Below are positions 7,341 through 16,033 of a stretch of DNA of 20,408 nt, piece by piece. Both the position numbers and the translations under genes were made by a program. Source of the DNA: a virus (lineage: Duplodnaviria > Heunggongvirae > Uroviricota > Caudoviricetes); IMG/VR virus record IMGVR_UViG_2737471845_000026, positions 1 through 20,408 of that record. One strand, written 5' to 3'. Position 1 is the first letter of the stretch. Each line of letters begins with the position of its first letter. A model generated the notes under the pieces. The model did no database searches. It saw only the letters and a list, made by a program, of their open reading frames with translations, and had not been told where the DNA came from.

Positions 7341-7496
7341 TTACTCCTCAGATTCGTAAGCTGTGAAGACAGTGACCTCCGTCTGGCCGGTTCGGATTCG
7401 TACCTCGCAGAGGTCTTTCCTCATTACCAGTGCCGTCACTATGACGGTTAAACAGATGACGATCAGGGCGATTAACATCGCCTTTTGCTGCTTCAT
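7341..7496 (-). CDS. hok: Hok/Gef-family type I toxin (51 aa), closely HokD/RelF-like
   Basis: Translation MKQQKAMLIALIVICLTVIVTALVMRKDLCEVRIRTGQTEVTVFTAYESEE is a Hok-family hallmark. SD AAGGAG 9 nt upstream. The listed 70-aa ORF is an in-frame upstream extension. Confidence 0.9.
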   Translation of the reverse strand: MKQQKAMLIALIVICLTVIVTALVMRKDLCEVRIRTGQTEVTVFTAYESEE

Positions 7497-7834
7497 AGCC
7501 AGCTTCTCCTTGCCTTTCGGCACGTAAGAGGCTAACCTACATGTGTAAAGCATGAAATTGGCCTCAGATTAATGTTAAGCGTCTTGCCGGACGCGTAATG
7601 TTAACTGGGGCTTTTCTCTGTCTGCCTTACAGTGGCATGCCCGAGGCAGACAGCCTCAAGCACCCGCAACAATCTTACCGACACCGATAAGAAAACGCTA
7701 TTTTTTATTGCCAGAACCTTCTGCCCAGGCTAATGTATCCGCGTCAGAACGGCGCAATGCGCTCGCCTGAGATACGTTTACTTGTCATTGGTGGCAACAG
7801 ATAACGGCAATTGTTATTTCTGTTTGTTTCCTTC

Positions 7835-8146: not shown

Positions 8147-8446
8147 TCACTCACTGTTATCCTCCTGGAAAATAACCGCATGCCCCAGCTTCTCCGCCAG
8201 TGCCAGTTCTGCCTTAGCACCTGCTGACCGCTGCCAGCCTTTCAGCATGTAAATCGCATCCACGCAGCGTATCATCGCCATGCAAATATCCATGTAGTGT
8301 GGCTGTGTCAGCCCATCCGGAAGTACTGCCGGGTTTAAGACTGTATGCCCTTCACGTTTCAGTTCCTCTTCCGCCTTGTGAAACGCCTCACGGTTGAAAT
8401 TTTTATATCCCGTCATTGGGCCGGCAATATAAACTCTCACCCTCAC
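8147..8446 (-). CDS. DUF4406-like protein (nucleoside 2-deoxyribosyltransferase-like fold), 99 aa, GTG start
   Basis: N-terminus MRVRVYIAGPMTG is typical of this family as I recall it. GTG at 8446 overlaps the upstream stop (GTGA) and has AGGAG 9 nt upstream. Confidence 0.7.
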   Translation of the reverse strand: MRVRVYIAGPMTGYKNFNREAFHKAEEELKREGHTVLNPAVLPDGLTQPHYMDICMAMIRCVDAIYMLKGWQRSAGAKAELALAEKLGHAVIFQEDNSE

Positions 8447-8697
8447 TCCTGAACTCTCCTGTCGAAATAAACGTAGTTATTCACTGTGCGCAACGGCATT
8501 CCAAATTTTATGGCGATTTCTCTCCTGGAGACGCCACGCTGATGCAGTTTTCGCGCCAGCTCAATATCGCTCTGAAGATATTTTGCTGACTGGTGAAAAT
8601 CACCACGCAGAATCAGACTTATTCCCATCTCCCGGGCTTTCGTCCTGACCGCCGCCTCACTACGACCAATCAGACTGCCGATGCTTTTTACCTTCAT
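8443..8697 (-). CDS. Small HTH-containing DNA-binding protein, 84 aa
   Basis: ATG at 8697; helix-turn-helix-like segments (SLIGRSEAAVRTKAREMG and VSRREIAIKFGMPLRTVNNYV). Confidence 0.5.
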   Translation of the reverse strand: MKVKSIGSLIGRSEAAVRTKAREMGISLILRGDFHQSAKYLQSDIELARKLHQRGVSRREIAIKFGMPLRTVNNYVYFDRRVQE

Positions 8698-8753
8698 TGT
8701 TCCCGCGCACTGCCGAAGAATAAGGATTTCAGCCCGCACCCAGCCACGCCATC

Positions 8754-9299
8754 TCACTTCACATCCTCTCCGGAACAATTCATCTGCCGTATAATATCCC
8801 GGTGCTTGTTCAGCTCCTGCAGCGCGGCGCAGACACGTTCCCACTTCCGGATATGACTTTTTGCCCGGCGCAGTTCACGGTTTGCCATATGTAGCGATGG
8901 CAGCATTACATAGTCGGTATGTTTTTCGGTGAACGATGGCAGTGACCGCACAATATCCGCCACCGTTTCTGTTTTAATTTCTTCCTGTGTTGCCGCTTCC
9001 TGTACCGGTAATGCAACCCCCGCTGGCTGAGGAAAGGCTTTACCATCAGTTTCCGCTACCGATGCGGCTTTCAGTTCTGCTGGTAAATTCTCGCCTGGCA
9101 TGCAGTAACGAAATTTACCGTTCTGATTAACGCGTGCCAGCCGCCCTGTTGAGGTTACTACCGCCAGCGTGGAAGCAACCTTGCGAATGCTGACACCGAA
9201 CTTACCCGCCAGTTCCTCACACGTTTTAGCCCCCTCCTGGCCGATAAACTCAATCATCATGTCAGCGGTAACTTTTTGTTCGCCCACCCCGGTTAGCAC
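8754..9299 (-). CDS. Winged-helix-containing protein, C-terminal reading frame (181 aa from GTG), in frame with the upstream 49-aa ORF across a single TAG
   Basis: No credible RBS before GTG 9299 or ATG 9260. Same frame as 9366-9515, separated by TAG at 9366-9368 plus 22 stop-free sense codons. HTH-like KTCEELAGKFGVSIRKVASTLAVV. Confidence 0.4.
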   Translation of the reverse strand: MLTGVGEQKVTADMMIEFIGQEGAKTCEELAGKFGVSIRKVASTLAVVTSTGRLARVNQNGKFRYCMPGENLPAELKAASVAETDGKAFPQPAGVALPVQEAATQEEIKTETVADIVRSLPSFTEKHTDYVMLPSLHMANRELRRAKSHIRKWERVCAALQELNKHRDIIRQMNCSGEDVK

Positions 9300-9365
9300 A
9301 TCCGGTGCTTCAGATTGTACTGGCTGCTCTTCGGTTACCCCGGATTCACCTTCACCAGCCAGAAA

Positions 9366-9515
9366 CTAGGTATGACCTGTTTTATCAACGACGCCATTTC
9401 TTTTGAGTTCCCACAGCTCGTTCAGCACTTCTTCACGACTGATATCAAGTCGCGCGGCCAGTTCCACCGACGTGGCTTTTCCCATTACTTTCAGTGCGTC
9501 AAAAACAGTCTCCAT
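9366..9515 (-). CDS. Small winged-helix protein, 49 aa; possibly the N-terminal part of an amber-interrupted gene
   Basis: ATG at 9515 with SD GGGAGGAAATTTTA-ATG; translation [49 protein letters not shown]; ends at TAG 9366-9368. Confidence 0.5.
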
Positions 9516-9537
9516 TAAAATTTCCTCCCGGTAAAAA

Positions 9538-10284
9538 TTACTTCTCAATTCCTGGCTGGATGACATTCGTGCGCCAGCTCTCCCAGTTAAAATTCACCCA
9601 GCGACCACCGTTCATGGTCATGCGGTCCATCACGCGCTCGCCAAGCAGCGTATTCATCGCCGTATGGTTCAGGTTCGTCAGCATCCCGACGCTGTGCATC
9701 GAGGCCGTTCTGCGATCGACTATCTGGTTCAGTGTGACCTGTTCGTTACGCGTATCCCGCTGCATACCAATTTCATCCAGGACAAGCAGGTCAACCTCAC
9801 ACAACCCCTGCAAAAATTTTTCGCCCGAGTTTTTGTTGTCGTAGTTGCCGTGTAACGCCAGCATCACATCCGCCACCGTCACCACAATCACGCTGCGACC
9901 TTTCGCCAGAAGATGGTTGCCGATGGCTGCCGCCAGGTGATTTTTTCCGGTACCCGGCTTACCGCTGAACACAAAATTTGTGCACCCGGTCATCAGCTCG
10001 TCCGCGATGGACTTCGCCTGGCTGAGTGCATGACGCTGTCCGTCGTTCTGCACCAGGTAATTCGCAAACGAACATTTCTGGTGCAACGGCTGGATACCGG
10101 AACGATTCAGAATTTTTTCCACCCGGATCTGGCGATTCTGGCGGTTAATCTCCTCGCTACGCTTTCGCCCTTCTGCAAGCTGCCACTCTCTCCACTCGTC
10201 CACTGTCCGGTACGGCGCGGTTACATGCTGCGGGGCCAGCTTACGGATGCGTTCAAGAACACCACCTGCCGCAATATTTTTCAT
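9538..10284 (-). CDS. DnaC-like replicative helicase loader (IstB/DnaC AAA+ family; Rac YdaV-like), 248 aa
   Basis: Walker [18 protein letters not shown], Walker B LLVLDEIG, and strong resemblance to E. coli DnaC along its length ([41 protein letters not shown]). Confidence 0.9.
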
Positions 10285-10290
10285 AACCCG

Positions 10291-11400
10291 TTACCCCCTG
10301 AATCCCGGCGGAATTTCGGTGTCCGGTTCAGAAATGTGATTCACACAACGCTGGTTGTTCGTGCCGCTTACCGGAATCAACCAGGGGTTTTCAAAATTCC
10401 GGTCCGGTCCAAAAAACGTCGTCGCTCGCTGAACAAATTCCGTTCCCGTTTTCCCGGTAGCCGCCAGGTATCTTGCATAACGCCTCACACCATCCATCAT
10501 GGCCTCTGGTGGCACCCCCTCGCGTAATCTGGCCTTCCAGGCACTGAATGCGGATTTCTTCGGGTTTGCCCCGGCACGCAACGGGTATTCCCGCCAGACC
10601 TGTTCGAACACATCCGGATAATCCACCCGTCCCACAGGCTGCCCGGTGTTTTCCGGGACTACCCGATCGGCTTCCCGCTGAATGGCGGAATCGGCTTCAG
10701 GCTGCTGCAGTTGGTGTGATTGTTCCGGCCTTGCGGTCATCGCCTGCTGCACAGCGCCCGAATCGGCTTTCAGCGCATACGCTGAATCGGCTTCCGGTGT
10801 CGTGCCTGCTGGCTGACCAGAATTTACGGTCTGAACATCCCCTGCCTGGTTCATGGTGTTTTTTTCGCCATGAACCATAGTGTTTTTGTCCTGTTCCTGT
10901 TCTTTCTCCTGCTCCTGTTCTTGGCTTCGAAGCCCCTTAAAAGCCCCTTCGAAGCCCCTTACAGAATTTCGGCTATTATTCCGCCTCACATCCAGATGGA
11001 AATCCGTTTTATATCTGTCGTAAAACGCTGACAGAAAAGCGTTTTCAGGTAATGATGCATACTCATTCCTGACACCTGCACAACGGTTATCGCCAGGCTT
11101 CAACGTTTCCCCAACCTGCCAGGCTGCCATTTCATGGACCCAGACCATCTCTGCATCATGGTCATAGCTACAAAAACCAGCTTCAACAGCCCTTTTAAGC
11201 CCCTTTGAAGCCCCTTCCAGACCAAGCCCGGTTTCATGAGCAAGGTATAAAACTGGCAGGTAATACAAACCCAGCATATTTGCGTGAGGGGATGTCATCA
11301 GGTAAAAAGCAACAACTTGCGCTTCTGCACCCGCCTTTCTAAGTTCTCTCCCCGTTTCTCCCAGCCAGAATCGCGGAGAAACTTTTGCGTAATCACGCAT
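10291..11400 (-). CDS. Replication initiator (O-like/YdaU-like), 369 aa from the ATG at 11400
   Basis: Immediately upstream of the DnaC-like gene (6-nt gap). SD GAGG 6 nt before ATG 11400; the listed ORF extends to ATG 11511 but that start has no SD. Contains a QEQEQEKEQEQ linker and iteron-like repeats. Confidence 0.7.
   Translation of the reverse strand: MRDYAKVSPRFWLGETGRELRKAGAEAQVVAFYLMTSPHANMLGLYYLPVLYLAHETGLGLEGASKGLKRAVEAGFCSYDHDAEMVWVHEMAAWQVGETLKPGDNRCAGVRNEYASLPENAFLSAFYDRYKTDFHLDVRRNNSRNSVRGFEGAFKGLRSQEQEQEKEQEQDKNTMVHGEKNTMNQAGDVQTVNSGQPAGTTPEADSAYALKADSGAVQQAMTARPEQSHQLQQPEADSAIQREADRVVPENTGQPVGRVDYPDVFEQVWREYPLRAGANPKKSAFSAWKARLREGVPPEAMMDGVRRYARYLAATGKTGTEFVQRATTFFGPDRNFENPWLIPVSGTNNQRCVNHISEPDTEIPPGFRG
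10930..10960. repeat. Iteron-like direct repeats (three copies of AAGCCCCTT at 11-bp spacing) inside the O-like gene
   Basis: Plus strand ...GAAGCCCCTTAAAAGCCCCTTCGAAGCCCCTT...; encodes the peptide repeat GFEGAFKGL. Confidence 0.4.
11188..11216. repeat. Second cluster of the same iteron-like motif (two full copies plus one degenerate)
   Basis: Plus strand CAGCCCTTTTAAGCCCCTTTGAAGCCCCTT, about 240 bp from the first cluster and still within the O-like gene. Confidence 0.35.
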
Positions 11401-11478
11401 GGCTACCTCATCTGGTGCCGAACCTTCCTCCGGATATAATCTGTGGTTCCCAATCGACAGAACCAGAGGAGGTTCGAC

Positions 11479-11934
11479 ATGTATTTTTTGAAAAGCCTTT
11501 ATCAGGCTCATGTATTAAATGTTGCAGCAACAAACCGCTGGTGTAATAGCCCCGAAATGCTCCCGGATTACAGAGCCTGGCTGCGCGCAGAAACATACCT
11601 TCGTCTCGACATATTGATTAGCAAACTTCAAAAAGAGACTGCATCCATTCATAACCTTCAGGGTATCGACGCTGTTCGCATTCTGGTATCGCGCCATAGT
11701 GCTCTCTCAATAATTGAAGTGCGTCATCTCTCTTTTTCTGAACTGATTTTCTTGCTTCAACCAGCTCTGGAATCAGCGAATATCCCACCGGAAGTGATCC
11801 AATACCCACCTCATGTTGACGAGCAGTTACAAGATGTGCCATACAACCAGCGTGCTGGATTGACTCCCTGCTCAGAGGCTGAATGGGATCACTCTCTGCT
11901 GAAGAAATACCAAGATTTGTATAATCCTCAATAA
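11479..11934 (+). CDS. Hypothetical protein, 151 aa, divergent from the replication operon; antisense to the 169-aa minus ORF
   Basis: ATG at 11479 preceded by a near-perfect SD AGAGGAGG with 6-nt spacing; reasonable codon usage. Overlaps 11618-12127 on the other strand, so only one of the two is likely real. Confidence 0.4.
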   Translation: MYFLKSLYQAHVLNVAATNRWCNSPEMLPDYRAWLRAETYLRLDILISKLQKETASIHNLQGIDAVRILVSRHSALSIIEVRHLSFSELIFLLQPALESANIPPEVIQYPPHVDEQLQDVPYNQRAGLTPCSEAEWDHSLLKKYQDLYNPQ

Positions 11935-14603: not shown

Positions 14604-15290
14604 TTTATCCTCCATTGAAGTTACTGGTTGAGAATGGAGACCACACGTGACAGCGTGTTGTCGTGCGCCGGACACGGATAAGAATCCGGCACTGACAGTT
14701 TACTGAAAGAATATATCCCTGAAAAGTCAGGGCATAACTCGAAAGCGCACGGCGGAGGTGTCTTTTCCTTAGAAGGCTTGTCGTTAGATTTCTTCGACCG
14801 TGCGCTTCCGGTTGTGGCACTCCGCGAAATGGCGCGGCGGTAAGTATGGCGGGGTTATCCTTACCCCATTAGTGGCACCGGGTTGTCAGGTTGACCATAC
14901 GCTTAAGTGACATCCCCGCTGCAACAACCCATGTTGATTACCTTTTGGCGGGTATCCGTTTTTTGTTTTCCCTTGTGATACCAGCCCTTTTTAAAGTGAA
15001 TTTTGTGATGCGGTGAATGCGGCTAAGCGCACGCGGAACAGTTAAAAAGGACAGTTGACATTCGTATTGGTTCTTATGGGTGGGTTATCTGTATCCGGCG
15101 TTAATTGTTAACTGGTTAACGTCACCTGGAGGCACCAGGCATCGCATCAACAAAATTCACTTCAGTGATGAAAGGTGAGAGAAAATGTTGAATGTAGCTA
15201 TTGAAAACCAGAACGGGTGGAATTATAGTGCACCTGCACCTCATAAAACGGGTGCCGGGATTTGCACCCCGATGATCACTAGAGCGCATA

Positions 15291-15312
15291 ACCGCGCCAA
15301 AGCGGTTTTTTT
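15291..15312 (+). terminator. Intrinsic-terminator-like hairpin plus U-tract inside the leader upstream of rha (possible attenuator)
   Basis: ACCGC-GCCAAA-GCGGT followed by TTTTTTT; embedded in a larger inverted repeat GCGCATAA...TTATGCG. Confidence 0.45.
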
Positions 15313-15478
15313 ATGCGTAAAGCGCAGCCACATTCAGATTATGGTGGGGCGTATGGGGCCGTTTTCGGGCGGGCCGGATTCTCTAGTGACCGGTAGTGCA
15401 AACCCTGTACGTCTCACCACCCATGAGATTTGCACCTACGGTGGTGAGTTTACCAACTTATCACTAGAGGCTGCCATC

Positions 15479-16033
15479 ATGGCTACTATCCCTACCCTGT
15501 CTCACCCTGACGTAACCATCGAAAACGGTCGCGCTATCACTACGTCTGTTGCGATCGCAGAGTTCTTTGGCAAACGACACGACAACGTGTTACGTGCCAT
15601 CGCAAACATTGAATGCTCAGAAAAATTTAACGCCCTCAATTTTGAGGACGTAACGTACACCGACGCCAAAGGCGAAAAACGTCCAATGTACCAAATCACC
15701 AAAAACGGCTTCGTTTTCCTGGTGATGGGCTTCACTGGCAAAAAAGCCGCTGCATTCAAAGAGGCCTACATTGCTGAGTTCGACCGCATGGAGGCAGAGC
15801 TGCGTCAGAATAACACCCCACCAACTGACAAAATAATTCCTGGCGATGGTCGCACTCTGGTTGTTCGCTTCGACGAACACGGCAATATCAAATTCACCGA
15901 AACCGTTCCTGATGGTGCAATGGTCTGTACTCTGGATACCTTCCAGTTTTATCTGGAGAAACAGGGATGGACACTTGTAAACCGGAGCGCAATTAGAAAC
16001 ATGACTGTCGAACAATTGCTGCGTATTAAATAG
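15479..16033 (+). CDS. rha: Phage regulatory protein Rha (Rha domain), 184 aa from ATG 15479
   Basis: Rha-domain signature VTIENGRAITTSVAIAEFFGKRHDNVLRAIANIE...ITKNGFVFLVMGFTGKKAAAFKEAYIAEFDRME; SD AGAGG 8 nt before ATG 15479. The in-frame upstream extension to 15185 is judged non-coding. Confidence 0.75.
   Translation: MATIPTLSHPDVTIENGRAITTSVAIAEFFGKRHDNVLRAIANIECSEKFNALNFEDVTYTDAKGEKRPMYQITKNGFVFLVMGFTGKKAAAFKEAYIAEFDRMEAELRQNNTPPTDKIIPGDGRTLVVRFDEHGNIKFTETVPDGAMVCTLDTFQFYLEKQGWTLVNRSAIRNMTVEQLLRIK

Follow-up and report, generated by a model that had tools for sequence, protein, structure and literature searches.

A DUF1627/YdaW-family gene in a Rac-like Escherichia coli prophage is very probably a fresh nonsense pseudogene, with its amber codon at a former Dcm site

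Rac-like and lambdoid prophages of Escherichia coli carry genes of the DUF1627/YdaW family (PF07789, PHROG 630), and roughly half of all E. coli genomes have such a gene beside the replication genes. Concerning the function of this family, YdaW of strain K-12 has been listed among the predicted transcription factors with strain-to-strain length variation (PMC9308461), and the overexpression of K-12 ydaW places it among the prophage genes reported to block the retron toxin RcaT (bioRxiv 10.1101/2020.06.22.160242). The family has no established function; according to structure prediction, its proteins seem to have two winged helices in the N-terminal half, followed by a disordered linker and C-terminal helices.

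Two other described systems are worth comparing with the locus presented here. The ren gene of phage lambda (PHROG 142, 'Ren-like exclusion protein') lies directly after the replication genes, as the DUF1627 gene does. Programmed read-through, on the other side, is exemplified by the Q-beta coat/A1 gene, with a UGA codon, and by retroviral gag-pol, with a UAG codon. In both of these, as in the locus under study, a single in-frame stop codon stands between two coding parts.

The window, that is, the whole stretch of 20,408 nucleotides that was analysed, belongs to a Rac-like prophage of an E. coli isolate, inserted beside ompW (draft contig JUDN01000003.1, assembly GCA_000798515.1); no publication turned up for the accession. 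The initial annotation of this DNA had described two open reading frames in one frame, split by a single amber codon, and all of these coordinates were borne out on the minus strand. The features of the locus and its neighbours are as follows.

8754 to 9515, minus strand: whole DUF1627/YdaW-family gene, 253 codons plus the stop codon, interrupted at codon 50.
9524 to 9529, minus strand: Shine-Dalgarno sequence GGGAGG, 8 nt ahead of the ATG at 9515-9513 and kept in the homologues.
9366 to 9515, minus strand: ORF of the N-terminal fragment, 49 aa plus TAG, as given by translation.
9366 to 9368, minus strand: amber codon TAG replacing the conserved TGG of Trp50; the mutated base is 9367.
9366 to 9370, no strand assigned: former Dcm site, read on the plus strand as CTAGG in the window and as CCAGG in all close relatives.
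8754 to 9365, minus strand: remainder of the gene, codons 51-253 plus TGA, probably untranslated or poorly translated.
9538 to 10284, minus strand: upstream DnaC/IstB-like replication gene, 248 aa; the DUF1627 gene is always the next one downstream.
8443 to 8757, minus strand: downstream HTH gene (PHROG 323), a 104-aa call from a GTG that overlaps the DUF1627 stop codon (GTGA).

Between the TAG and the GTG at 9299 there are 22 stop-free codons (66 nt, 9365-9300) in the same frame, and they lead into a mechanically called ORF of 181 codons that starts at this GTG (9299-8754, minus strand) and closes with the TGA at 8756-8754. In the source record the 49-aa product is annotated as a hypothetical protein and the 181-aa product as a 'DNA-binding protein' (KHJ23514.1). 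Position 9566, which had been given as the outer limit of the region, is merely the mechanical ATG of a 66-aa ORF overlapping the end of the upstream DnaC-like gene, whose stop codon is at 9540-9538. Regarding the downstream HTH gene, it begins at the ATG at 8697 (84 aa) in RefSeq relatives. No Rfam family matched within 8754-9566.

Elsewhere in the window, Rfam matches pointed to two other RNA-containing regions. A hok/sok type I toxin-antitoxin module occupies 7341-7665 on the minus strand, where the sok match (RF01794) covers 7494-7665 with 115 bits and is overlapped by a 70-aa Hok-like ORF at 7341-7553. On the plus strand, isrK (15236-15312, 68.6 bits) lies beside a C4 antisense RNA (15337-15424, 78.1 bits), both inside the 5' part of a mechanically called 282-aa antirepressor-like ORF (Phage_ASH/pRha, 15185-16033). 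This region looks like a C4 immunity module of the P1/P7 style, and the true start of the ORF may be downstream of both RNAs. Moreover, the replication-initiator ('O-like') ORF at 10291-11511 on the minus strand has 406 aa mechanically and in the source record and 369 aa in near-identical relatives, which is a matter of start-codon choice only. One of these relatives, L009, differs from the window at position 10387, inside this ORF.

The analysis of the protein sequence with Trp restored at codon 50 placed it in the DUF1627/YdaW family above the curated threshold. The match to PF07789 covers aa 91-245 with E = 6e-91 and 302.7 bits (cutoff 28.1), and that to PHROG 630 runs end to end, over positions 1-250 of 253, with E = 3e-129. 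The 181-aa half by itself reaches 303.8 bits against PF07789. The length of 253 aa and the position after the replication gene are the same as in the DUF1627/YdaW genes of Rac-like and lambdoid prophages, since members of this family lie directly downstream of a DnaC-like or lambda-P-like replication gene. The window gene stands apart from the family by the amber codon in place of the invariant Trp50: it has no continuous reading frame of about 250 aa, and the TAG at codon 50 makes the locus a pseudogene member of the family. As for lambda Ren, PHROG 142 gave a weak match (E = 8.8e-6) to aa 85-138, within the second winged helix. This likeness is confined to one winged-helix-sized stretch and is far weaker than that to PHROG 630; as a sequence match it could be taken only as a lead, and no functional inference is warranted from it.

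Both halves of the locus had been described as winged-helix-like, and this agrees with sub-threshold Pfam winged-helix matches on each half and with AlphaFold2 and Foldseek. The AlphaFold2 model, which was made for an intact homologue 99% identical to the window protein, has its first winged helix at aa 1-53 (pLDDT 85-91), with disorder in the linker (aa 56-80) and again at aa 143-183, together with two further elements in the part of the gene beyond the stop codon.

9102 to 9266, minus strand: second winged helix, aa 84-138, AlphaFold2 pLDDT 75-81.
8766 to 8927, minus strand: C-terminal helices, aa 197-250, of the DUF1627 domain, from a low-confidence model.

The second winged helix gave weak matches to the HTH_PafC, FeoC, MarR and Ren-like families. 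The top Foldseek matches in the PDB were tandem winged-helix proteins (the SelB C-terminus, ESCRT-II and ScpB), with modest E values of about 4e-4. The model puts Trp50 in the final wing strand (aa 49-52) of the first domain, and so the 49-aa fragment would hold helices H1-H3 and the first wing strand and would miss the last one.

To place the interruption in context, the homologous prophages were compared at this locus, and they encode one uninterrupted protein of about 251-256 aa; a layout of two separate genes, the second with a ribosome-binding site of its own, was not found, the homologues being single genes. Of 5,426 complete E. coli genomes, 2,681 have the segment by megablast, as do several phages, and it is always annotated as a single CDS of 251-256 aa ('DUF1627 domain-containing protein' or 'YdaW family') right after the replication gene. 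A protein search returned 2,270 homologues, with identities of 83-99% for the best 120, almost all of which have 251-256 aa. The nucleotide alignment showed TGG opposite the TAG in all five homologues aligned, and of 130 aligned homologues, 129 have Trp at position 50 and the remaining one has a gap there. Six contigs with the same prophage, reached through the DnaC-like protein of the window, all have an intact 253-aa DUF1627 gene adjoining it.

The closest relatives narrow the difference down to one base. The DUF1627 gene of L009 and L011 equals that of the window in 761 of 762 nt, and the sole difference is nucleotide 149, which is G in them and A in the window. Comparison with L011 over 20,284 bp gave two mismatches; at the second one, window position 1722, the base of the window is shared by all other relatives, which leaves the TAG as the only private change of the window lineage. 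These results support the earlier suggestion that a recent nonsense mutation split a tandem winged-helix gene of roughly 250 aa. The in-frame arrangement of the two ORFs is no accident: they are one gene.

The amber allele itself proved to be rare. The exact 49-aa and 181-aa products are recorded on one contig only, JUDN01000003.1, and the Trp-restored protein on 5 contigs. A 141-bp segment around the TAG had no 100% match in the 5,426 complete E. coli genomes, and searches of the same genomes with TAG and TGA segments gave only matches of 98.9-99.4%. In IMG/VR, a 20-mer spanning codon 50 was found with TGG on at least 120 contigs, and with TAG or TGA on none. Among 120 of these TGG loci, about 97 are complete ORFs of 243-265 aa, 2 have premature stops elsewhere and 5 are out of frame upstream. 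A scan of the GTDB species representatives for the exact TAG pattern also returned 0 matches, which is weak evidence because that set includes one E. coli genome.

Regarding the origin of the mutation, the sequence around the mutated base is informative. In E. coli, Dcm methylates the inner cytosine of CCWGG, and deamination of the resulting 5-methylcytosine gives thymine. The amber hotspots of lacI reportedly lie at such sites. On the plus strand, the context is CCAGG in seven relatives, L009 and L011 included, and CTAGG in the window (C to T at 9367), which on the coding strand is G to A and turns TGG into TAG. The ancestral motif is thus a CCWGG site changed from C to T at its inner cytosine. 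The likeness with the lacI hotspots is close, since there too CCAGG becomes CTAGG by a C to T change at the inner cytosine and an amber codon is made; the difference is that in lacI a CAG (Gln) codon is converted on the coding strand, whereas in the window the methylated cytosine would be on the non-coding strand and a TGG (Trp) codon is converted. The window has 60 other CCWGG sites and Dcm cytosines make up about 0.6% of its positions, so a chance hit on one of them with the right base change is unlikely. Since the mutated base is the inner C of CCAGG, deamination is the most likely origin: the 5-methylcytosine would have been deaminated spontaneously and would have escaped very-short-patch repair. 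As read from the sequence, the Dcm-hotspot origin is plausible, not demonstrated.

The abundance of these sites is an observation in its own right. The whole window has 60 CCWGG sites, about twice the expected number: shuffles that preserve dinucleotides gave 31.9 +/- 5.1, and none of 100 reached 60. Very-short-patch repair in E. coli is known to favour the creation of CCWGG, and the surplus would fit such a bias.

The consequences for translation were considered on both sides of the stop codon. The Shine-Dalgarno sequence GGGAGG and the ATG at 9515 of the 49-aa ORF were confirmed, with an anti-Shine-Dalgarno duplex energy of -10.3 kcal/mol. The 181-aa ORF had been said to have no credible ribosome-binding site, and indeed the corresponding energy at the GTG at 9299, the nearest in-frame restart (66 nt from the stop), is -0.2 kcal/mol. 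The other in-frame restarts have -4.2 (GTG 9287) and -0.4 kcal/mol (ATG 9260 and 9257). The search for tRNA genes in the window found none, so there is no suppressor tRNA in it, and the predicted fold of the 111-nt RNA segment around and beyond the stop is on a par with that of shuffles (z = 0.21). Unlike the programmed read-through genes, then, the window has a stop codon that is not conserved, that lacks a stimulatory structure or context or a suppressor tRNA borne by the window, and that derives from one recent mutation. Since the allele is one substitution away from the intact gene, no read-through device can have evolved around the stop. Neither of the two marks of a true two-gene split, a ribosome-binding site and start of its own for the second ORF and a two-gene layout in the homologues, was found. 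The proposal that expression depends on amber read-through or reinitiation, and would hence be conditional, is therefore unsupported.

In terms of mechanism, ribosomes would start at the strong Shine-Dalgarno sequence and the ATG at 9515 and would release a 49-aa fragment whose winged helix is missing its last wing strand. Past the stop, 203 codons would be essentially untranslated because no in-frame restart has a usable Shine-Dalgarno sequence, and the downstream early-region genes, including the HTH gene, may suffer some polarity from the premature stop. A trace of product could arise by low-level reinitiation at the GTG at 9287 or by near-cognate read-through of UAG.

Stop codons at the same position were also found in other DUF1627 alleles. 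These were reached through the 90% cluster to which the 49-aa peptide belongs, a route that carries an ascertainment bias in favour of codon 50. The cluster contains many peptides of 46-54 aa, mostly contig-end partials, and taking all its members of this length as nonsense alleles was rejected, as most of them are partial products cut at contig ends. In the true nonsense alleles, the frame is open apart from the stop. Codon 50 is TAG in two of them, L013 and L014, and L013 differs from the intact gene of E. coli 55989 by the G to A change at nucleotide 149 alone. It is TGA in L015, L016, L036-L040, L041, L042 and L044, and TAG in L043. In the nine alleles L036-L044 there is an in-frame GTG 3 nt past the stop (TGACGTGTGG or TAGCGTGTGG), so termination-reinitiation is conceivable there; gene callers start a 202-aa ORF at this GTG in L041-L044, and call L036-L040 from a later start, with 191 aa. 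At codon 35, a Trp codon that is not at a Dcm site and served as control, TGA was found in two alleles and TAG in two others, again in frames that are open apart from the stop. The stops at codon 50, TAG or TGA, and those at codon 35 occur in similar numbers, with no clear excess of the Dcm-type change, so the recurrences alone are no proof of a hotspot. As a separate observation, the metagenome allele L015 (427-1197) carries two G to A changes 7 nt apart, at gene nucleotides 150 and 157 and both CTGG to CTGA, which could be clustered damage or an assembly artefact.

Furthermore, a 184-aa C-terminal DUF1627 product (P0148) is recorded on 220 contigs. At ten loci examined (L026-L035), the lesions upstream of it are frameshifts, with N-terminal ORFs of 59 and 64 aa, IS insertions directly upstream, and deletions fusing it to the cro/cI region. 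After such varied lesions, the 184-aa ORF is simply a leftover, and the DUF1627 gene is a frequent casualty in decaying prophages. The collection has roughly a million prophage copies from E. coli, and by an order-of-magnitude estimate a few independent hits per nonsense site would fit weak or absent selection. A programmed or selected stop at codon 50 was rejected as the main reading on account of the ascertainment bias, the recurrence at codon 35, the lack of any codon-50 stop among the at least 120 IMG/VR contigs, an unbiased sample, and the other lesions. That the stops at codons 35 and 50 form a recurrent mutational off-switch, in which lysogens are selected against a costly prophage protein and trace activity persists by read-through or reinitiation, rather than neutral decay, is very doubtful.

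Taken together, the two ORFs are very probably the halves of one DUF1627/YdaW gene, a fresh nonsense pseudogene made by the change of Trp50 from TGG to TAG. A less likely reading, and an improbable one, is a sequencing or assembly error, the isolate truly having TGG and an intact gene. The TAG allele is present on one draft contig only and differs by a single base from intact relatives, as an error would. However, the change is the specific C to T transition of a Dcm cytosine, and such sites are established mutational hotspots but are not known as error motifs; a real mutation is thereby likelier than a base-calling error. Elsewhere, the 20 kb are identical to those of relatives, which speaks for a high-quality consensus, and the same kind of stop at codon 50 is found in independent assemblies of other alleles. 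The listing of contig JUDN01000003.1 for 3 samples also counts against an error, with the sense of that count being ambiguous.

The ways in which the locus could still yield a working product hold together only a very small share of the probability. Production of the full-length protein by amber suppression or read-through, tied to the suppressor status or physiology of the host, would suit a frame that is open on both sides of one TAG and the recurrence of codon-50 stops in other alleles, and a low basal read-through of UAG exists in E. coli. Nevertheless, the stop is not conserved among the aligned homologues or in IMG/VR, one mutation separates the allele from its intact relatives, and neither a tRNA gene in the window nor a structure after the stop was found. 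The base after the stop is U, reportedly an efficient termination context in E. coli, and read-through of UAG would mostly put Gln or Tyr at the invariant Trp of the wing strand, so that such conditional expression is extremely unlikely. A functional split, where reinitiation after the TAG gives the 49-aa winged-helix fragment plus a working C-terminal protein of about 170-180 aa (second winged helix and helices), is very unlikely as well. In-frame GTG and ATG codons do lie 22-36 codons past the stop, gene callers annotate the 181-aa ORF, and other codon-50 stop alleles have their GTG 3 nt past the stop; but in the window the nearest start is 66 nt away and the candidate restarts at 9299 and 9287 are weak next to the ATG at 9515, the homologues are not two genes, the 184-aa fall-back ORF is equally left by frameshifts, IS insertions and deletions, and the 49-aa piece is without the conserved wing strand. 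The nonsense pseudogene is thus a case of ordinary gene decay rather than of regulated read-through or a split gene, a known kind of event in a known family.

Concerning the meaning of these results, the finding has little weight beyond annotation and the locus is no help on the biology of DUF1627/YdaW. The source record should replace its two coding sequences, for the 49-aa hypothetical protein and for KHJ23514.1, by a single DUF1627 pseudogene. In prophage early regions, pairs of in-frame ORFs with one stop codon between them should be regarded first of all as candidates for fresh pseudogenes, and the prophage described here offers a clean natural case of a Dcm-site amber mutation, whose age is bounded by about 1 substitution per 20 kb of prophage.
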